From Patescibacteria group bacterium (lineage in GTDB: Bacteria; Patescibacteriota; Minisyncoccia; RBG-13-40-8-A), in contig JAZDGD010000009.1 of assembly GCA_043807255.1 (NCBI GenBank), forward strand, positions 29,476-93,475: a stretch of DNA of 64,000 bases, written 5' to 3'. The notes beneath the pieces are model-generated. The model was not told the DNA's origin, did no database searches, and saw only the letters and a program-made list of their open reading frames with translations. Every line of letters starts with the position of its first letter. The first letter of the stretch is position 1. The translations under genes were made by a program, and so were the position numbers. Positions 4,113 through 64,000 of the stretch are shown in pieces.

Positions 4113-4880
4113 TCATAATAATTCGTATTTGCCCGAACCAATAAATCTTAAATAATTTTTATTTCTTAAAAATTGTAATTGTTGTCGGATTTTATCCTTA
4201 ATGTGTTTATTTTCCGGATGAATAATTTTTAGGTCAGTTTCGAAATTATAAATATCTTGTAAATAAAATTCTTTTTTATCTATAAAATCAATACAATTCA
4301 TAATATCTAAAATCCAGCCCCTTGCGTCTGCTTTTTTAATTTTTTTAAGAAAAACCGTTTTTTGCCATTTATCTAAAACTTGTTTTTTAGAAATTTCTTT
4401 TCCGTTTTCTACGTAAAATACTTGCCCCGCTTTGGGAATTTTTGAAAATAAAATATTTGAACCGATCCAGCCAGCTCTTCTGGCTGTCTCTTTTAGGGGT
4501 TTTCTTTTCTCAACAATTTCAGAAACAAAAAAATGTTTTGGCACAACTAAAAAATCATTTACATACAGCGACTCTAAATATCCCATAAAAAAGAAATTTG
4601 GTTTAACTTGAGAATTTATTCTTTCTATCATTTTCGAATATGCTCCAGCGGGTATAATTTTATTAATCTTTCCTTTTTTTGATTTTAATTCAAAATCTTC
4701 ATTACATTTTTCACAATAAAAATCTGCTACTGGCTTATTGTTCTCATAATTAGTAATCTTTATATTCCCACAATTAGGACAAAAAATTTCATTGTTGACC
4801 CAGTTCTCCGTTAAAACTCTCGTTTTTTGAGATAAACTTTTGTATTTATCGGCAATTTTTGTATCGAAAGATAAATTCAT
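4113..4880 (-). CDS. DpnI-like methylation-dependent (GmATC-type) restriction endonuclease
   Basis: 255 aa. N-terminus has SQKTRVLTENWV...FCPNCGN...NNKPVADFYCEKCNEDFELKSKKG (zinc ribbon plus PD-(D/E)xK region). C-terminus has IKDKIRQQLQFLRNKNYLRFIGSGKYELL (winged helix). The layout and many residues match my recollection of S. pneumoniae DpnI (254 aa). Confidence 0.55.
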   Translation of the reverse strand: MNLSFDTKIADKYKSLSQKTRVLTENWVNNEIFCPNCGNIKITNYENNKPVADFYCEKCNEDFELKSKKGKINKIIPAGAYSKMIERINSQVKPNFFFMGYLESLYVNDFLVVPKHFFVSEIVEKRKPLKETARRAGWIGSNILFSKIPKAGQVFYVENGKEISKKQVLDKWQKTVFLKKIKKADARGWILDIMNCIDFIDKKEFYLQDIYNFETDLKIIHPENKHIKDKIRQQLQFLRNKNYLRFIGSGKYELL

Positions 4881-4939
4881 ATATTTTTATCATACCTCTT
4901 TTAATAAATTTTTACCAGCATTATAGATATTTTAACAGA

Positions 4940-5137
4940 AATACCCGAGGTCTGACCTCGGGTATTTCTGTATCTTATGAGGCTAAGCCTCGTAAGATAT
5001 AATCCTGATATCGGGAGGTTCGACCTCTAACGCCCCCCCGCATCAACACTTAATATTGGGAGGTCGAACCTCTTATTATGTGGGACGTGCGACGTCCCAC
5101 ATAAATACGAAACATACGGAGAACTGTTCTCCGTATC
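4940..5137. repeat. Array of six different GC-rich hairpins in tandem
   Basis: Hairpins: cccgaggtctgacctcggg (4945), cttatgaggctaagcctcgtaag (4975), gggaggttcgacctc (5013), gggaggtcgaacctc (5058), gtgggacgtgcgacgtcccac (5080), atacggagaactgttctccgtat (5115). Confidence 0.6.
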
Positions 5138-5173
5138 TTCTATCTGTCCACTATTAATGAGAATTTGTTTGTC

Positions 5174-5309: not shown

Positions 5310-5843
5310 CTATCTCTTGCTCCACTGTGGCGCCTTACGGGCTTTCTTGAGGCCGAATTTTCGACGCTCTTTCTCTCTTGGGTCTCTTTTTAAAAATCCT
5401 GCCTTCTTTAGTTTCTTTCTAAAATTAATATCAAAAATAATCAATGCTCTAGAAATACCATGTCTGATTGCTTCCGCTTGTCCAGAAATTCCACCGCCAT
5501 TAACTTTCACTGTTCCTGAAAATCGGTTTGCTGATTTTAGCTTTGCAAACGGAGATTCGATTGTTTGTTGTAAAATTTGGGTTGGAAAATATTGCTTATA
5601 ATTTTTTCCATTAACTATAAGATTCCCTGCTTCCATTGATTCTGATGGATTGACAGTAAAAAGCCGAACACGAGCAACTGCTCTTTTTCTTCTGCCAACG
5701 GCCTCAATATATTCTGACTTTTTGAGCTTCCTCTCTCCAACAACGTCTTCAGAAATAGGCAGGACAACCTGAATATCCTCTGTACTTTCAGCGGGTTTTT
5801 TGGCCACTTTAACAGATTTAATTTTACTTGATTTCTCCGGCAT
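5310..5843 (-). CDS. rpsI: 30S ribosomal protein S9 (with N-terminal extension)
   Basis: C-terminus GRRKRAVARVRLF...RKFGLKKARKAPQWSKR is typical of S9. Confidence 0.85.
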   Translation of the reverse strand: MPEKSSKIKSVKVAKKPAESTEDIQVVLPISEDVVGERKLKKSEYIEAVGRRKRAVARVRLFTVNPSESMEAGNLIVNGKNYKQYFPTQILQQTIESPFAKLKSANRFSGTVKVNGGGISGQAEAIRHGISRALIIFDINFRKKLKKAGFLKRDPREKERRKFGLKKARKAPQWSKR

Positions 5844-12512: not shown

Positions 12513-12639
12513 GGTACTCTCCTTTTCGCTTTTTAGCGATAATTTAATGTATCAAATTAAAAAAATTTCGTCAAGCGTTTGCAAACACAAACACCACATA
12601 AATACCATAAACACTATATCAATATTATAAACATTCTTT

Positions 12640-12675
12640 GTTTCCATTTTTGTACGGCCGTAATAAAATGGAAAC
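12640..12675. repeat. Nested-palindrome repeat, family A, 3' copy (gtttccatttttgtacggccgtaataaaatggaaac)
   Basis: 11-bp outer stem enclosing a tacggccgta inner palindrome. Lies 30 nt downstream of the stop codon of 12706..13266. Confidence 0.7.
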
Positions 12676-12705
12676 AAAATTATCTGTTAAAAAACATGAA
12701 CTATG

Positions 12706-13266
12706 TTATTCGAATCTTACTTTTTTAACTAAAAGAAAATCTACAAAAGATTTTAAATTATATTGTTCAATCAATTCTTTGGTTTCTTTCTCTGTGTCAT
12801 ATTGGCAAACCCAAATACTTTGTTGCATTTTTTTATATCCTAAATATTTCAATCCCCTCCTAAACCAATCCCTGTCTTTTCGCCTACTTTCCGATATGTC
12901 AAATAAAACCATTTGCCACTTTCTGTCTTTTCTTAGGTTATTGTCTGTCAATTTTAATTTTGTGATAAATAATTTTTCGAAACCTTTTGATGTAATTATT
13001 ACGGCCGATTTATCCTTCGCTCTTAACGTTTTCAAATAACCACTACTTTTTAACTTACAAACCGTTCCAGCAAATCTTCTTTTGCTTTTTTCCCTTTCGC
13101 GTTTCTTTTTGTTTTCATTTGTCCACTCGTCTCTGAATGTATTGAAGTCGGAAAAACGCAACCCTCCTCTTTCGGGAATAATTTTGCCAATTACGTCTTT
13201 TGTTTTATTTTTGAAATTATATAAATCCCAAAGAAATTGTTCGGTAAATGGTAATTTAAGTCTCAT
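12706..13266 (-). CDS. Winged-helix / Cas2-VapD-like fusion protein (paralog 1)
   Basis: The C-terminal half, KWQMVLFDISESRRKDRDWFRRGLKYLGYKKMQQSIWVCQYD, matches the Cas2 core pattern (hVhhhYDI..RR..h...L...G.RhQxSVFxC). The N-terminal half, CKLKSSGYLKTL...VIITSKGFEKL, looks like a winged helix. Confidence 0.55.
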   Translation of the reverse strand: MRLKLPFTEQFLWDLYNFKNKTKDVIGKIIPERGGLRFSDFNTFRDEWTNENKKKREREKSKRRFAGTVCKLKSSGYLKTLRAKDKSAVIITSKGFEKLFITKLKLTDNNLRKDRKWQMVLFDISESRRKDRDWFRRGLKYLGYKKMQQSIWVCQYDTEKETKELIEQYNLKSFVDFLLVKKVRFE

Positions 13267-13278
13267 AGAATATTATTA

Positions 13279-13315
13279 TGTTTCTATTTTATTACGGCCG
13301 TAATAAAATAGAAAC
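13279..13315. repeat. Nested-palindrome repeat, family A, 5' copy (gtttctattttattacggccgtaataaaatagaaac)
   Basis: 13 nt upstream of the ATG of 12706..13266. Differs from the 3' copy by a compensatory C/G to T/A change that keeps the outer stem intact. Confidence 0.7.
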
Positions 13316-13396
13316 AATTTGAATTTAATAATTAAAATTAATAAATCCCATAATTAATAAACGATTAAATTTATAAATCTTTCGATTATTAAAATT

Positions 13397-30780: not shown

Positions 30781-30885
30781 TTTTTTATATATATTAATTA
30801 TTAATTTATTAATTGTTAGTTAATATACAGTATAGCACACATTTAATGTGGTGCCATGGGAATTCAAGCCCAAGTTTTTTAGAAT

Positions 30886-30916
30886 AAATCTTACGAGGTT
30901 AAACCTCGTAAGATTT
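30886..30916. repeat. REP-like palindrome, copy 1 (aaatcttacgaggttaaacctcgtaagattt)
   Basis: Perfect 14-bp inverted repeat overlapping the transposase stop codon. Confidence 0.7.
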
Positions 30917-31610
30917 ATTCTAATGACAATTCTCTTGCGTCGTTTACTGCCATGTCCTTCAGCCATTTTTCTATATTTTGTTTGTATTTCCCATCTCCAC
31001 CAAACACTCCCAATAAAAATTCTCTATTTGTAATTGAAGGAAAGTTCTTTTTACCTGCGTAATCCAAATAACTAGACCAACGATAATTGCCTAAATATTC
31101 CATCGCTCCGTTATAATTATTTAGTTTTCTTGCTCGCCATTCCGGAAAACTGAGATCTAGTGGATTCAAATGAATATAATATGGAAGGTTTAAGAAATGA
31201 TTTTGTTTGTCGATTAAAATTGATTTATACGTACTCTGAAATAATGTTCCCCTTCTTTTGTATTTTTTATTGAATGACATCGTATAACCGGTTCCTAATT
31301 TTTGCATAAACCTAGAAATACCATTATCTTTTTTCTGTTTCAACAATAAATGATAATGATTTGGCATCAAACAAAATGCTAAAATTTCCACAAGCAATTT
31401 TCTCTCTTTAATCTTGCGAGGTTTAACCTCGTAAGATTCTAGGTCCATAGATTTATAATATATATTTTCTGCGGGTGCCTCATCGTTAAATTCATACAGA
31501 TCGTGAATAAAACGAAGATGGTCCTTGTCGTCTGCAAATATGTTTCTCTGTTCAACTCCGTGATTTAAAACGTGATAAATTTCATTATTTTCAAATTGTG
31601 GTTTTTTCAT
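30915..31610 (-). mobile_element. tnpA: IS200/IS605-type Y1 (HUH) transposase, REP-associated (RAYT-like)
   Basis: N-terminal YHVLNHGVEQRNIF, HUH motif PNHYHLLL, and catalytic Tyr context GTLFQSTYKSILID. Flanked by REP-like palindromes. Confidence 0.6.
31410..31438. repeat. REP-like palindrome, copy 2, inside the transposase CDS in-frame
   Basis: aatcttgcgaggtttaacctcgtaagatt, which encodes SYEVKPRKI. Confidence 0.65.
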
Positions 31611-31640
31611 AATATTTTTATATTATCATAATTAAAATAT

Positions 31641-31667
31641 GTTTACGAGGTTAAACCTCGTAAGATT
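31641..31667. repeat. REP-like palindrome, copy 3
   Basis: gtttacgaggttaaacctcgtaagatta. Confidence 0.7.
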
Positions 31668-31721
31668 AATTGTAACATAAAAATTGATATTTAGATATAA
31701 TTCTGCTATATTTTAACTAAC

Positions 31722-31794
31722 GGCCCCATCGTCTAGTGGCCCAGGACATCAGATTCTCATTCTGAAAACACCGGTTCAACTCCGGTTGGGGCTA
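31722..31794 (+). tRNA. tRNA-Glu (anticodon CTC)
   Basis: Hand-folded cloverleaf: acceptor GGCCCCA/TGGGGCT, anticodon loop TTCTCAT, T-loop TTCAACT. Confidence 0.7.
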
Positions 31795-31800
31795 AAACCA

Positions 31801-31833
31801 AAAATCTTACGAGGTTTAACCTCGTAAGATTTT
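31801..31833. repeat. REP-like palindrome, copy 4
   Basis: aaaatcttacgaggtttaacctcgtaagatttt. Confidence 0.7.
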
Positions 31834-31862: not shown

Positions 31863-33152
31863 TTATTTTTTAAGCCAAGTTTTGTCTTGACGGACTAAAA
31901 GCTGTTTTATTTTTTCTGGCTCTGCCATAATTTCCTCTATTATCTTTTCTAGTCTTATTGATTGAGATCCTTTTACAAAAACAATATCTTCTTCTTTTAT
32001 TTCTTTTTGCACAATTAATTTTGCTTCTTCGGATGTTGAAAATTTAAAAATCTTACTTTCATCAAAACCAACGCTCTTTGCTCCTTGTGCAATAAATTCT
32101 GTACTACTTCCAATTGCAAAAATTAGATTTACTGTTTCGCCCGCCTTTTTGCCAAGCTTGATATGTGCTTGTTCTGAATATTTCCCAATCTCCAACATAT
32201 CTCCCAAAATTGCGATTTTTCGTTTATCTGTAAAAACTTTTAAGGCATTAAGTCCTGCCTCCATTGATAGTGGTGCTGCGTTGTAGGAATCATCAATAAT
32301 AACACTATTTTTTATCCCTTTTAATAAATGCATTCTTCCTGGCAAAGGAACAATTTCTTTGATTGCCTGAGAAATCTCTACTAAGTTCATATTAAAAATA
32401 ATTCCTACCGCAGCTCCGGCCAAGGCCGAATATAAATGTTGTGTGCCCAAAACATTAATTAATTTTGCTGGCACACTGCTCCCCTTAAAATCTAATTTAA
32501 AATTAAGCTCACTAACGTTTTCTTTTTCAAACAACAATTTTAATTCATAATTTGTTGCCTTAATATCCGCTTTTTCATTCAATCCAAAGGTCATAACTTT
32601 AGCGTCGATATCATTTTCCATTTTTCTTACTCTTTCGTCGTCGTAATTTAAAATCGCAATTCCATCCTTGTCCAATGTTTTGACTATGGTCTTTTTTTCT
32701 TCAGCAACTTTTTCTGGGCTTTCGAAAAATTCAACATGAACTGGAATATCACCAACCGTAGTGACTACGCCAATTTTATGTTTTACAAAACCAAGCAAGT
32801 ACTTTATGTCTCCCGGTTTATCAGCCCCCATTTCTAAAATTAGGAAATCGGGATAATCAACTTTAACCAAAATCATATACAACATTTTAATAAATTTTGG
32901 AATCCATCTTAAAATTGAATTTCCTCCAGTTTTTAAATTAAAAATCGTTAACGGGACACCAATTTCATTATTATAATTTTTTTCATTCCTTCTGATTCGT
33001 TTTTCGCCAAAATGACTTTTTAAAACAGCATAAATTGCCTCCTTGGTAGAGGTTTTACCTACGCTACCAGTAATCGCAATAACAATTGGCTTATATTTTT
33101 TTAAAGCAATGATTGCTAATCTTTTTAATATTTTTTGTAAAATTTTTATCAT
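31863..33152 (-). CDS. murF: UDP-N-acetylmuramoyl-tripeptide--D-alanyl-D-alanine ligase MurF
   Basis: ITGSVGKTSTKE P-loop and Mur ligase domains. Confidence 0.8.
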   Translation of the reverse strand: MIKILQKILKRLAIIALKKYKPIVIAITGSVGKTSTKEAIYAVLKSHFGEKRIRRNEKNYNNEIGVPLTIFNLKTGGNSILRWIPKFIKMLYMILVKVDYPDFLILEMGADKPGDIKYLLGFVKHKIGVVTTVGDIPVHVEFFESPEKVAEEKKTIVKTLDKDGIAILNYDDERVRKMENDIDAKVMTFGLNEKADIKATNYELKLLFEKENVSELNFKLDFKGSSVPAKLINVLGTQHLYSALAGAAVGIIFNMNLVEISQAIKEIVPLPGRMHLLKGIKNSVIIDDSYNAAPLSMEAGLNALKVFTDKRKIAILGDMLEIGKYSEQAHIKLGKKAGETVNLIFAIGSSTEFIAQGAKSVGFDESKIFKFSTSEEAKLIVQKEIKEEDIVFVKGSQSIRLEKIIEEIMAEPEKIKQLLVRQDKTWLKK

Positions 33153-33153
33153 A

Positions 33154-34869
33154 TTATTCGCTTGGCATTATCTCATAATAATTTAACACATACTTGGCTA
33201 TTTCTCCAAACAATGGTGCTGATGTACTTTCGGCATATTGTGCGCCAACTGGTCTGTCCAATTTCACCAACATTGAAAATTGAGCATTAAAAGCTGGATA
33301 ATAACCAATTACAGAATGAATTGTTTCGTTTTCTAAATATCCTTTTACTGGATCTGGAATTTGAGCAGTCCCAGTCTTTGCAGCAATTTGATATCCTTCG
33401 ACTCCTGCACGTTGTGTGTGACCGTTTTCAACAACACTTACAAGCATTGCAGTTAACCTTGAGGCGGTGTCTTGAGAAATTACACGTCTTATTTCTTTGG
33501 GCCGTGTTTCTTCTTCTTTGTCACCGCGAATGATTTTTTCAACCACGTAGGGTTTCATCATTATGCCATTGTTAGCAATCGCTGCAAATGCGGTTACCAT
33601 TTGAATTGGCGTTACAGCAATGCCCTGACCAAAAGAAATGTTTGCGTAATTGATATCAATATCTTTATTCAAATTTAGAATGCTTCCTTTTACTTCGCCG
33701 TTTAAATCAATGCCCGTTTTCTCTCCGAAGCCAAATTTAATAACATACTCCTTAAACGCACTCTTACCCAGTTCTTGTTGGGCAAAAACAGCTCCTAGGT
33801 TCAGTGATTTTTCCAAAACCTGTGTCATTGTCTGAATTCCCTCTGCGCGCCTCAAGGCGTTTTCAATTATCTTGCCAGACACCTCTATCTTGCCGGTGTC
33901 ATTATAAGTAGTTTGGGGATTAACAACTTTTTTGTCAAGCGCAGCAGCCATGGTTATTGGCTTAAATATTGATCCTGGTTCATATAAACTTTGCACGATT
34001 GGATTTATAAAAACGTTTATATTTTTAACATTTCCGTAATTGTTGGGATTAAATTTTGGATAACTAGCCATGGCAATAATTTTGCCAGTTTGTACTTCCA
34101 TAATTACTACGCTGCCGGATGGAGATTTAAATTTATCAATATATTCTTTTAATTTATTTTCTACAAAAAATTGAACATTGGGATCGATAGTCAAAATTAA
34201 GTCTGCTCCCTCTTCTGGTTGTTCAATTATCTTTTTGCTTATGGGAATTAATTGCCCCTTGCTATCTTTTTCCATTATTGCTGACCCTGCCCTTCCTGAC
34301 AATTCTTGATTATACGCTTCTTCTACTCCATACTGACCCTGATCTGCTTCTCCGCTTGTCTGACGCACAAAACCGATTAAGTGGCAAACTGTTTCATTCG
34401 CAGGAAAATATCTTCTTTGTTCGACTTCGAATTTTATACCCTGCAAATTTAATTCTTTAATCTGTTCAATAATTTCCTCGCTGACCTTATTTTTTAATGG
34501 TTCATAGGGATCATTTTCCTTATAAATTCTTTCTCTAATTTTGTCTGCGTCCATTTCTAATAATGGAGCTAATAATTCTGCCGTTTCTTCTTTCTCTTCG
34601 ATCTCCATGGGAACGGCATAAAGATTGTAAAAATTTTTATTAATTGCTATTGGAGAAAATAAAGAGCGGGAGTTTTTCTCGATATACCGATCTTTAAGAA
34701 AAATTTCCCCCCGCTGAGGATAAATATTTTGATACACCTGTTGTTGGTTTTCGGCCTTCCCTTTATAGGAGCTGTGTTTTAATATTTGAAGATTAAACAA
34801 GCGAAAAACTACACCCGCAAAACAAAAAAATATAACCACGCTTAAAAAATAAAAACGCCAATTTTTCAT
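33154..34869 (-). CDS. ftsI: Penicillin-binding protein 2/3 transpeptidase (FtsI-like)
   Basis: N-terminal TM helix and transpeptidase motifs (S..K context, KTGTA). Confidence 0.8.
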   Translation of the reverse strand: MKNWRFYFLSVVIFFCFAGVVFRLFNLQILKHSSYKGKAENQQQVYQNIYPQRGEIFLKDRYIEKNSRSLFSPIAINKNFYNLYAVPMEIEEKEETAELLAPLLEMDADKIRERIYKENDPYEPLKNKVSEEIIEQIKELNLQGIKFEVEQRRYFPANETVCHLIGFVRQTSGEADQGQYGVEEAYNQELSGRAGSAIMEKDSKGQLIPISKKIIEQPEEGADLILTIDPNVQFFVENKLKEYIDKFKSPSGSVVIMEVQTGKIIAMASYPKFNPNNYGNVKNINVFINPIVQSLYEPGSIFKPITMAAALDKKVVNPQTTYNDTGKIEVSGKIIENALRRAEGIQTMTQVLEKSLNLGAVFAQQELGKSAFKEYVIKFGFGEKTGIDLNGEVKGSILNLNKDIDINYANISFGQGIAVTPIQMVTAFAAIANNGIMMKPYVVEKIIRGDKEEETRPKEIRRVISQDTASRLTAMLVSVVENGHTQRAGVEGYQIAAKTGTAQIPDPVKGYLENETIHSVIGYYPAFNAQFSMLVKLDRPVGAQYAESTSAPLFGEIAKYVLNYYEIMPSE

Positions 34870-36874: not shown

Positions 36875-37486
36875 CTAGAGATTTGGCTCTTTGGCAGAAG
36901 CGAGGCCGATGCTACTGTCGTCGTTGGAGTCATCCCAGTCGATGATGCGGAGACCGTCCTTGTCGAAGATGCCGAGACTGAAAGAATCGCCATACGAATT
37001 CACATTCGAAGTTCTGACCCAGATGCGTTTAAACAAGCGTTCATTGTTCTCCAGACAATTCAGCATGATGGCATAGGCCATTTGTCGAACCATGGGAACA
37101 ACTTCGTTGGTCTGGAGCAGATGCTGCTGTTTGCCCCAGTTCTTTTTGCGGGAATTGGGAACTTCTGCTTTCCGAATCAGACGCCACTGCGGAGTTTCCT
37201 GCTCCTCGGCCCAGCCGTACGATTCGCAAAAGCCTAAATGCTGGTCGCAGAATAGACCATCCTTCACTCTGCCACGAACATCAAGAAGCGAGATCCCGAA
37301 GTCGGCAATGAGGATATGGTCGTTCTTCGTTGCTTCCAACACCTCTTCGGTAAACGGAATCACCGAAAACGCCTTGGCGATTTCATTGGTCATCGAGACA
37401 TTGAAACGCCGGACGGCTACGTCTACGCCGAGAAGATTACGACCCATGATTTCACGAACAGAATTGAGTTTTAAAAACTTGCTCAC
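36875..37486 (-). CDS. GC-rich hypothetical protein of atypical composition (probable GTG start with SD AAGGAG; alternative ATG at 37447)
   Basis: Region 36880-37480 is far more GC-rich than its flanks. The 203-aa ORF VSKFLKLNSVREIMGRNLLGVDVAVRRF...HILIADFGISLLDVRGRV... has balanced amino-acid composition. Overlapping plus-strand ORFs look spurious. Confidence 0.45.
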   Translation of the reverse strand: MSKFLKLNSVREIMGRNLLGVDVAVRRFNVSMTNEIAKAFSVIPFTEEVLEATKNDHILIADFGISLLDVRGRVKDGLFCDQHLGFCESYGWAEEQETPQWRLIRKAEVPNSRKKNWGKQQHLLQTNEVVPMVRQMAYAIMLNCLENNERLFKRIWVRTSNVNSYGDSFSLGIFDKDGLRIIDWDDSNDDSSIGLASAKEPNL

Positions 37487-37607
37487 TCTAAATCTCCTTT
37501 TAATATAAATTTTATGGCTCTCTCCGACTTTTACGTCGTAGCTCGCCATAATTTCAAAGGACAAATACAATTCATATATACCATATCGCAAAAATCTTGT
37601 CAAATTA

Positions 37608-37648
37608 TTTCTTGTCGCCATTAGAACGCCATGGCGTAATTATGGCGT
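37608..37648. repeat. Nested-palindrome repeat, family B, 3' copy (tttcttgtcgccattagaacgccatggcgtaattatggcg)
   Basis: Inner perfect palindrome acgccatggcgt with an outer cgccat/atggcg stem. Lies 31 nt downstream of the stop codon of 37680..38255. Confidence 0.7.
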
Positions 37649-37679
37649 ATCAATTAATTGAGCAATATTGGCCAACCGA

Positions 37680-38255
37680 CTAATTGATTTTAAATGTTTC
37701 TCTTAACTCTCTATCATCTCCTATTCTGTCGGCCACGATTAATCTAATTTCGTTTTCGGTTAATCCAAAAAAATCTCTCAACAAATCGATTTCATCTTTA
37801 CAATTAAATGGATGGATCCAAACACTTTTTTGAATTAATTGAAATCCCAACTCTTTTAATTTTCCGCGAAAAGCATCTCTATGGGCCTTTTTCAAATGTG
37901 CAATATCAAACATAACCAATCTCCATTTCTTGTCCCATTTTTTCGGTTTACCGATCTTTAATTCGTCTATCTGCATCCAACCAGCTTTTCTCTTGCCTTT
38001 GTCCGTAAGCGAAATATGCATGCCACCTTTTTTGATTTCTATCTTTATCAATCCTTGTTTCTTGAGTTTATAAAAATTGTCTTGCACCTTTTTGTTGCCA
38101 TATCTTTTAAATTGCTTCAATCCCCTCATTAAATTTCGTATAAAATAAGGAGAACTAGCCGCGACGACAACTGCACCAGAAATTAATAGTGCTATCAAAA
38201 TATCTTTAACAATTTCAGATTTTGGTTTTTTAAAATAATATTTATATTTTGTCAT
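37680..38255 (-). CDS. Winged-helix / Cas2-VapD-like fusion protein (paralog 2, with N-terminal TM helix)
   Basis: KKWRLVMFDIAHLKKAHRDAFRGKLKELGFQLIQKSVWIHPFN is Cas2-like. FYKLKKQGLIKIEIKKGGMHISLTDKGKR is wHTH-like. Aligns along its length with paralog 1. Confidence 0.55.
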   Translation of the reverse strand: MTKYKYYFKKPKSEIVKDILIALLISGAVVVAASSPYFIRNLMRGLKQFKRYGNKKVQDNFYKLKKQGLIKIEIKKGGMHISLTDKGKRKAGWMQIDELKIGKPKKWDKKWRLVMFDIAHLKKAHRDAFRGKLKELGFQLIQKSVWIHPFNCKDEIDLLRDFFGLTENEIRLIVADRIGDDRELRETFKIN

Positions 38256-38268
38256 ATTTGTAATTCAC

Positions 38269-38310
38269 TTTCTTGTCGCCATTAGAACGCCATGGCGTAA
38301 ATACGGCGAC
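38269..38310. repeat. Nested-palindrome repeat, family B, 5' copy
   Basis: ctttcttgtcgccattagaacgccatggcgtaaatacggcgac, 14 nt upstream of the ATG. Confidence 0.7.
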
Positions 38311-38389
38311 AACAAATAAATAATTAACAATAGATCATAGAAACATAAATAAAAATAAAATAATAATTTAAATTAAAACTCAACAATAA

Positions 38390-63830: not shown

Positions 63831-64000
63831 AGGCCATCTTAATTACAAGTTTATTATAAAATAATTCCCGTGTCAATAATTATTTATAACTATCTCTTTC
63901 GTAATTTGAATTAAAAAAATTTAATGATTTTGTTCATATTTGAAGATGTCAGAGGTCATACCTCAGACATCTATATTTTTAAGACTGTAAACTAAATTCA

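Follow-up and report, generated by a model that had tools for sequence, protein, structure and literature searches.

A palindrome-bounded Y1 transposase-type gene of Patescibacteria with a cognate palindrome inside its reading frame

Introduction

Why does a gene for a Y1 (HUH) transposase-type protein carry, in frame within its own open reading frame (ORF), the palindrome that also flanks it on both sides? We address this question at a locus next to murF in a 64,000-nucleotide stretch of DNA from a Patescibacteria group bacterium (contig JAZDGD010000009.1, positions 29,476 to 93,475; the whole stretch is called the window). Patescibacteria have small genomes and are usually considered poor in mobile elements. 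Repetitive extragenic palindromic (REP) sequences and their REP-associated tyrosine transposases (RAYTs), in turn, are among the most abundant and least understood bacterial repeat systems, and the control and retention of the enzyme are open questions. A sequence-only reading of the window had described the locus as a classic REP/RAYT arrangement in which palindromes flank and invade a transposase gene and which separates murF from the other division and cell-wall genes. With moderate confidence, we read it as a REPtron-like Y1 cassette of ~0.79 kb, typical of Patescibacteria, with two outer palindromes and one in-frame internal palindrome, whose enzyme would recognise the palindromes of its own cassette.

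Results

A Y1 gene bounded by one palindrome

The palindrome CTTACGAGGTT-N-AACCTCGTAAG was found at four positions within the window, as had been reported, and its 11-nucleotide half-site matched 10 times against 0.61 expected matches (none of 100 shuffled sequences equalled this number). Folded as single-stranded DNA, copies 1 to 4 reached -19.8, -9.2, -7.9 and -14.4 kcal/mol, respectively (z = -4.4 to -10.4). The remaining ~63 kb of the window held no further copy of the exact palindrome. The gene for the 231-amino-acid protein with the PNHYHLLL motif was likewise present and passed the Pfam Y1_Tnp model. The elements of the cassette are the following.

30879-30923 (core 30886-30916): downstream palindrome D (copy 1), with perfect arms of 22+22 nucleotides; overlaps the stop codon (30915-30917) and marks the right edge of the cassette
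30915..31610, minus strand: Y1 (HUH) tyrosine-transposase-like gene, 231 amino acids, contains PNHYHLLL
31176-31178: codon of the likely nucleophile Y145, within YYIHLNP; invariant
31350-31358: HUH motif, H85/H87
31410-31438: internal palindrome I (copy 2), inside the ORF and in frame, with one A.C mismatch (CGC instead of CGT)
31625..31654, minus strand: promoter-like site of the Y1 gene, TTAACC-18-TATGAT, overlapped by copy U at the -35
31641-31667: upstream palindrome U (copy 3), 31 nucleotides before the ATG (centre 43 nucleotides before it); marks the left edge of the cassette

The loci of the window and L003, of L001 and of L004 lie in three genomic contexts, and DNA homology between them starts exactly at U and stops exactly at D; the unit is therefore a cassette of ~0.79 kb. 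No conserved positions were found beyond ±15 nucleotides of the palindrome centres, and neither a GTAG-like head nor a target motif was present. Inner palindrome positions such as GTAA are class-specific.

Three palindromes per locus, matched within each locus

Copy I encodes E-S-Y-E-V-K-P-R-K-I (codons ~57-67). Because the palindrome-encoded peptide S-Y-E-V-K-P-R-K looked conserved in the protein alignment, 83 homologous loci were gathered (proteins 51-86% identical, mostly from different species). Nearly all of them have palindromes 20-60 nucleotides before the start codon, at ORF nucleotides ~150-240 and at or just past the stop codon, with upstream, internal and downstream copies detected in 74, 64 and 76 loci, respectively. 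A more sensitive search, with the flanking palindrome as probe, showed that 72 of 80 loci have a cognate intragenic copy. Most intragenic sites lie at nucleotides 150-239 (71 sites), with 4 near nucleotide 460 and 2 near nucleotide 600, and several loci without the usual internal site carry one of these alternative sites.

The palindrome varies between loci (examples begin with TTACGAGGCT, CTTACGAAGTT, TTAACGTCCTT, TTAGGAAGTC or TAAGGCTGTC; another is ATATTCGGACTTGCGAAGTCCGAATAT) and matches among the three sites of one locus: arms were identical at 8 or more of 9 positions in 75-80% of the within-locus comparisons and in 8-9% of the between-locus comparisons. The identity of the flanking palindromes tracks protein identity when the palindrome-coded residues are masked (Spearman 0.28; reached in 0 of 500 permutations). 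Some genomes carry two to three paralogues; such paralogues share 55-70% identity and differ in their palindromes. The copies are near-symmetric; when the central base is used to orient them, U is inverted relative to D in 34 loci and the two point the same way in 21. A fixed orientation rule for the three copies was sought and none was found. The three-site layout is thus conserved across the family and its copies co-vary within each locus. What had been taken for a palindrome invading the gene is a conserved, in-frame and co-varying part of the gene family.

A homologue of 60% identity, present on metagenome contigs (L095, L108, L128, L136 and L137), carries the exact window palindrome twice inside its ORF, near query residues 66 and 175 and 327 bp apart. 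Among distant relatives, a Rhodospirillum rubrum plasmid protein (26.5% identity) has the same geometry of U (at -53) and D (at the stop codon) and no cognate internal copy. Three such loci were sampled, and they hint that the internal copy may have arisen within the Patescibacteria lineage. A relative on an Iodobacter plasmid (L157, 1641-1673) has two identical GTAG-containing palindromes, GTGTAGCAAGTTGCTACAC, at -180 and 270 nucleotides past the stop codon; its ORF contains an unrelated 13-bp hairpin at nucleotide 182, the same relative position as the Patescibacteria internal copy.

In the REP/RAYT literature that we searched, intragenic REPs were reported only in other genes (uvrA, recB and others in PMC3733652) and none within a RAYT gene; an in-frame cognate copy inside the ORF was not found described for RAYT-type elements. 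A search for literature linking RAYT or IS200 with Patescibacteria or the candidate phyla radiation (CPR) returned nothing relevant.

The internal copy is constrained as DNA

For an analysis of stem covariation, 60 internal copies were aligned gap-free. Across the 14-bp internal stem 90% of the cells were paired, compared to 32-47% in slid controls. Double-sided changes occurred in 12 of the 14 stem pairs (163 compensatory cells), and the covariation of 0.517 (0.150 after shuffling) was equalled in none of 500 shuffles. The internal copy always lies in one frame, at codon ~59 (codons ~58-66), and the encoded peptide follows the complementarity of the arms (SYEVKPRK, SKEVGLPK, CLEVQPLN, TMEVEPQY and NKAVGQPY in different loci). 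The near-invariant positions are the same in the coding copy I and the non-coding copies U and D, i.e. G/C at ±6 (92-100%) and A/T at ±5, ±10 and ±13. Stem mismatches comprised 14 G.T and 20 A.C pairs, without the wobble bias of a sense RNA, and hence it is the DNA, rather than the peptide or the mRNA, that is under constraint. As RNA, the whole region folds stably (z = -3.7), with the upstream copy pairing with the internal copy over 27 bp. mRNA structure was considered as an explanation and rejected, since transcription likely starts downstream of U and there is no G.U bias.

The same data bear on the possibility that the internal palindrome is a neutral relic of an ancient REP-like insertion into a tolerant loop, kept by gene conversion or hairpin-templated repair. 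The palindrome-encoded residues form a low-confidence loop between helix 28-40 and strand 74-81 of the structural model described below, and the peptide is free to vary. The central base switches between N and its complement among close relatives, and the arms are lengthened by locus-specific sequence to 22-29 bp; both would fit hairpin-templated DNA copying. The distant proteobacterial relative also has no cognate internal copy. Against a relic speaks its retention in 72 of 80 loci, even where protein identity falls to ~51%, with the reading frame always maintained and with the same conserved positions as the flanking copies, and the frequent presence of an alternative site near nucleotide 460 or 600 where the usual one is missing. 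Conversion would have to beat decay in dozens of lineages, and we consider this explanation quite unlikely.

Cognate copies concentrate at the gene and rarely occur alone

A census of partial genomes located 242 cognate copies at most 1 kb from the gene and 17 across the 813 kb farther away, a ~50-fold difference in density; solo copies do exist, and they are few. None of the distant copies lies beside another Y1 gene, except for a fragment in L026. A metagenome scan with the exact 27-mer returned 84 copies, 40 of them in or next to Y1 genes and 44 solo, 35 of the latter intergenic. Within the window, nine one-base-loop palindromes fit the family scaffold (GA at -6/-5) against 0.19 expected. 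Five of the nine belong to other classes, at 2921 and in a cluster at 4935-5139 that includes the related variant noticed earlier, which exists.

4975..4997: solo palindrome of another class (GAGGCT-A-AGCCTC), within the scaffold-type palindrome cluster 4935-5139

In other genomes, paralogues such as L008, L009 and L029 have the GAGGCT class as their cognate palindrome. Altogether, solo scaffold palindromes of other classes were found at 2905-2991, 4935-5139 and 63944-63972, some of them clustered, with at least four within 200 bp between a DpnI-like gene and rpsI. Two positions, 2961-2991 and 63944-63972, hold copies of a class with a three-base loop, the first being of a 'GCG-loop' type cognate to paralogues such as L024, L045 and L056. 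REP-like populations exist, each class being small.

No cassette/empty or cassette/solo pair was observed among 618 flank comparisons in the partial genomes, and a clean empty site for the L001 cassette was not found via PilB relatives, where the upstream synteny is not conserved. No recent mobility was detected. Given that neither insertion polymorphism nor identical copies were found, mobility can be deduced only from the differing contexts of paralogues and from their patchy distribution. tRNA genes were considered as a general target and dismissed, since a tRNA lay 300 bp or less away in no more than 2-3 of 60 loci.

Could the palindromes have nothing to do with the protein's activity and simply be the intrinsic terminators or regulatory RNA hairpins usual in an AT-rich genome? 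Copy 4 (on the minus strand, that of murF) and the upstream copy U score terminator-like, other small genes of the window are bracketed by palindromes of their own, and the regional RNA fold is stable. A terminator at codon 60 inside the ORF would however be harmful, no T-run follows copy I in the window sequence, and the mismatches show no G.U bias. The palindrome class moreover tracks the protein lineage and the cassette boundaries, and the enrichment near the gene is specific to the gene family. This makes the explanation highly improbable.

The protein has a Y1 fold and falls below the RAYT and IS200 thresholds

The protein matched Pfam Y1_Tnp over residues 70-147 (42.6 bits; cut-off 23) and missed both NCBIfam thresholds, those for RAYTs (NF047646, REP_Tyr_transpos; 46.6 bits against a cut-off of 80) and for IS200 transposases (NF033573, transpos_IS200; 12.9 bits against a cut-off of 55). 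An AlphaFold model built from 75 homologues was of moderate confidence (pLDDT 68.7). Its best PDB match with Foldseek was 4ER8, the E. coli RAYT with REP hairpin (TM 0.39/0.52), followed by ISDra2 and IS608 TnpA. A PDB sequence search with the single protein returned no match, and a PDB profile search aligned only the HUH strand of ISDra2 (MPNHFHLLL vs MPDHVHLLL; E = 0.11).

H85, H87 and Y145 are invariant among the 75 homologues. The catalytic tyrosine had been assigned to QSTYKSIL; this residue, Y128, is not conserved and the family consensus at its position is F, and the invariant tyrosine is Y145. In the structural model Y145 lies on helix 138-148, which follows the last strand; this is where the nucleophile of Y1 transposases is located, and Y145 is the likely nucleophile of this protein. 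The N-terminal strand reads IYH(V/I)xN(R/H)G and has no RAYT-type Thr, the motif beside the tyrosine is NPLDL(S/K), in which NPL is matched and (R/K)xG is absent, and residues 150-231 form a conserved C-terminal extension. Taken together, the data support that the gene encodes a Y1 HUH (IS200/RAYT-type) transposase-type protein.

Database matches comprised more than 7,900 proteins, the closest named ones from Patescibacteria (e.g. Wolfe-, Nealson- and Colwellbacteria). We counted 570 relatives among GTDB species representatives and, within a superfamily of 19,410, at least 290 clusters (50% identity) that matched at E <= 1e-30. The viral contigs searched contained no family member, and the plasmids searched contained only relatives at 35% identity or below.

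An HUH enzyme might use the internal hairpin of its own gene as an origin-like nick site and the outer copies for termination or transfer. HUH enzymes nick at hairpins, and there is a precedent in the pT181 origin, which lies within repC, and the phiX174 origin, which lies within gene A; the internal copy is also near-universal and, where its position shifts, stays between the outer copies. On the other hand, no circular or amplified form was seen, the sequence bears no nick-site mark, the family is chromosomal and absent from the viral contigs, and the fold matches Y1 transposases rather than Rep proteins. An origin-like role is therefore, in our judgement, very unlikely.

The upstream copy coincides with a promoter-like site

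In the window a -35-like hexamer lies within the centre of U, and the -10 follows 18 nucleotides downstream; alternatively, the -10 has the extended form TGaTAATAT, which ends 9 nucleotides before the ATG. Of 74 loci, 34 have the extended motif TGnTAnnnT between the U centre and the ATG, compared with 3.9% of control windows, and in 26 of these 34 it ends 6-9 nucleotides before the ATG. Where the spacing is short, TAAGAT of the palindrome arm itself stands at the -10 position. A -10 so near to the ATG would imply a leaderless or near-leaderless mRNA, and judging from these motifs copy U sits on the promoter of a gene that appears to be leaderless.

An apparently disrupted tRNA-Glu at the murF site

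The sequence-only reading had placed the module between murF and the upstream division and cell-wall genes. Here it erred: murF (31863..33152) directly abuts ftsI (33154..34869), the mraZ-mraW-ftsL-ftsI-murF block is intact, and the Y1 module lies downstream of murF. The tRNA-Glu gene reported between copies 3 and 4 was present. The elements around the cassette are the following.

30849..30885, minus strand: decayed 3' half of a tRNA-Glu, directly after palindrome D; recognised only by alignment with the tRNA-Glu genes of L087-L090
31684-31712: promoter-like site of tRNA-Glu, TTGATA-17-TATATT
31722-31794, plus strand: tRNA-Glu(CTC), inverted relative to murF and bracketed by copies 3 and 4
31801-31833: fourth palindrome (copy 4), with 16-nucleotide arms, between the convergent murF and tRNA-Glu

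An Rfam scan of the window at the gathering threshold detected tRNAs only, and a permissive scan of 30781-30900 yielded nothing credible.

In the closest genome, L087 (a closed 626-kb chromosome, MurF 88% identical), the order is clpB-mraZ-mraW-ftsL-ftsI-murF, followed 3 nucleotides past the murF stop codon by a tRNA-Glu in direct orientation and then by the same 220-amino-acid, Na/Ca-exchanger and RmuC genes. Neither a Y1 gene nor a palindrome was found at its murF site. Comparison of the ftsI-murF region thus showed that the cassette is absent from the closest relative, with the gene cluster uninterrupted in the window. The cassette is likewise absent from L088 and L089, where the tRNA-Glu is direct and, in L089, accompanied by an extra half-tRNA. 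L090 has one 45-bp palindrome and an inverted tRNA-Glu without a Y1 gene, and L003 (MurF 72%, Y1 protein 78% identical) shows the same arrangement as the window. As a separate observation, L088 (MurF 80% identical) carries an 82-amino-acid GIY-YIG ORF between murF and tRNA-Glu (5311-5559), which implies that the same intergenic spot accepts different small nuclease-type genes.

The functional tRNA-Glu of the window is inverted and differs in allele from its counterpart in the closest relative, and the decayed half looks like the remnant of the ancestral, direct-oriented gene; from these two features together, the block would sit in a disrupted ancestral tRNA-Glu. The site may have seen one old event followed by losses, or repeated events. 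Between the syntenic genomes the Y1 gene is as conserved as MurF (78% against 72%): it evolves slowly, and its position after murF is common to two lineages.

Could the cassette be an active, autonomous insertion sequence of the IS200/IS605 type, with the outer palindromes as end hairpins of a single-strand 'peel and paste' element? The Y1 fold with its HUH motif and tyrosine, the palindrome-bounded unit, the two to three paralogues in some genomes, the absence from the closest relative at the murF site and a promoter partly inside one end, as in many insertion sequences, would all be expected. The protein scores far below the IS200 cut-off, however, and with 231 amino acids and a C-terminal extension it exceeds the IS200/IS605 transposases, which average less than 150 amino acids (PMC2817692). 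Both ends are perfect and identical, with no guide or cleavage motif outside them, and the paralogues differ so much in protein and palindrome that they are not recent copies. The gene is conserved to the same degree as MurF, it was found on none of the viral contigs and on plasmids only as distant relatives, and no insertion polymorphism was found. We therefore regard an active insertion sequence as unlikely.

Other palindrome-bounded genes of the window

Two small PaaX_M/Cas2-like genes of the window, 12706-13266 and 37680-38255 (both minus strand; regions 12637-13316 and 37616-38316), each lie between two copies of a ~40-bp palindrome of their own (cores TTACGGCCGTAA and AACGCCATGGCGT), and neither contains an internal copy. 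The clpB-mraZ interval of L087 is without the second of these genes and without the 248-amino-acid ORF 36875-37621, so that this region looks like another palindrome-bounded indel cassette. The DpnI-like restriction endonuclease gene (4113-4880, minus strand) matched Pfam DpnI with 250 bits and DpnI_C; DpnI cuts methylated DNA.

Discussion

How would such a cassette work? We propose that the enzyme binds its cognate palindrome in hairpin form, by analogy with the TnpA proteins of IS200/IS605 and with RAYTs, and that the outer copies served as the ends in movements of the cassette and, rarely, of solo copies. The upstream copy could double as an operator and a read-through insulator, and the downstream copy and copy 4 may act as terminators. 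The internal copy would be a further candidate cis-acting site for the same protein, perhaps a roadblock for autoregulation, or a sink that retains the enzyme at the gene encoding it. Much like domesticated RAYTs, the system is probably now largely sedentary and vertically inherited, a state suggested by the slow evolution of the gene, the shared synteny, the absence from viral contigs and the merely distant plasmid relatives.

Several observations weigh against this reading. There is no conserved cleavage motif outside the palindrome, unlike in IS200/IS605 elements and GTAG REPs. The structural model is only moderately confident, as is its match to 4ER8. The insertion at the murF site is not clean, its inverted tRNA-Glu of a different allele pointing to a complex history, and neither an identical second cassette copy nor a presence/absence pair was found in the flank comparisons. 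Finally, palindromic covariation fits a hairpin and a dyad-symmetric duplex operator alike.

As to the question posed at the outset, the most likely role of the internal copy is that of an additional predicted binding site, serving autoregulation or cis-sequestration; the chief alternatives are that it serves as an origin-like nick site or is a neutral relic maintained by conversion. A stronger version, in which the internal palindrome is a functional cis site (a self-operator or roadblock, or an origin-like nick site) and the family an undescribed 'self-marked' class of domesticated Y1 proteins, is a possibility that we put forward only tentatively. If true, a 'self-marked' family would both introduce and preserve terminator-like palindromes in genomes that rank among the smallest of bacteria, and its specificity would be re-coded in parallel at three DNA sites and in the protein.

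Whatever its role, the internal copy is a clear case of DNA structure constraining a protein, since base-pairing dictates which peptide codons 58-66 encode. The dozens of natural matched sets, each consisting of a protein, two flanking sites and one coding site, amount to a specificity table for an HUH enzyme. If the internal site is regulatory, it would offer a simple testable model for tying a potentially dangerous nuclease to its own gene.

Comparison with known systems

REPtrons (Ton-Hoang 2012, PMC3333891; Corneloup 2021, PMC8266576) share with the cassette a Y1 HUH enzyme, which is also the closest structural match, and cognate palindromes bracketing the gene, as well as co-evolution of protein and palindrome, several palindrome systems per genome and slow, largely vertical evolution. 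RAYTs are marked by an N-terminal Thr and by NP(L/V)(R/K)xG beside the Tyr (Nunvar 2010, PMC2817692), and their REPs have a GT(A/G)G head, usually occur in more than 100 copies genome-wide and stand as an inverted pair around the gene (PMC2817692). The cassette protein, in contrast, falls under the RAYT threshold, has no N-terminal Thr and matches the second motif only in part; its palindromes have no GTAG head, no fixed orientation of its flanks was found, its solo copies are few rather than hundreds, and it has an in-frame cognate copy inside the ORF. The description as a REP/RAYT unit therefore stands as far as the Y1 HUH protein, the cognate flanking palindromes and the solo copies in relatives are concerned, and the 'classic' arrangement falls with the sub-threshold score, the partial motifs, the perfect palindromes without GTAG head and the few distant copies. 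Some of these traits occur among known systems: Group 3 REPs can be perfect palindromes and Marinomonas REPs concentrate near the gene (PMC8266576), and RAYT groups with few repeats have been argued to be sedentary and domesticated (PMC5581495).

The IS200/IS605 elements IS608, ISDra2 and IS200 resemble the cassette in fold, HUH motif, small size (~0.8 kb) and a single gene between end hairpins. Their ends are imperfect subterminal hairpins with flanking guide sequences and a conserved target tetra- or pentanucleotide, whereas the end palindromes of the cassette are perfect, mutually identical and strand-symmetric, without guide or cleavage sequences outside. In IS200 a hairpin upstream of the gene is described as blocking read-through, and U could do likewise. 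The cassette further differs in its longer protein with the extra conserved C-terminal region, which does not match the IS200 model, in the absence of identical copies within a genome and in the presence of the internal cognate copy.

Rolling-circle initiators of the pT181 and phiX174 type are alike in that an HUH nuclease gene carries in its own frame a hairpin that its product acts on, as the Y1 protein may do here, a parallel that we offer as a lead only. They belong to plasmid or phage replicons with Rep-type proteins, in contrast to a chromosomal Y1 cassette with no evidence of replication. TIRYT/TIRtron elements are RAYT-like genes flanked by non-GTAG inverted repeats (Di Nocera 2013, PMC3733652). 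Like the cassette, they combine a RAYT-like Y1 gene and flanks without GTAG with repeats that are of low or moderate copy number or absent elsewhere; unlike them, the cassette is flanked by short self-complementary palindromes instead of long terminal inverted repeats and has one palindrome inside the gene. We describe the cassette as a member of neither the RAYT nor the IS200/IS605 family; it appears to work like a REPtron.

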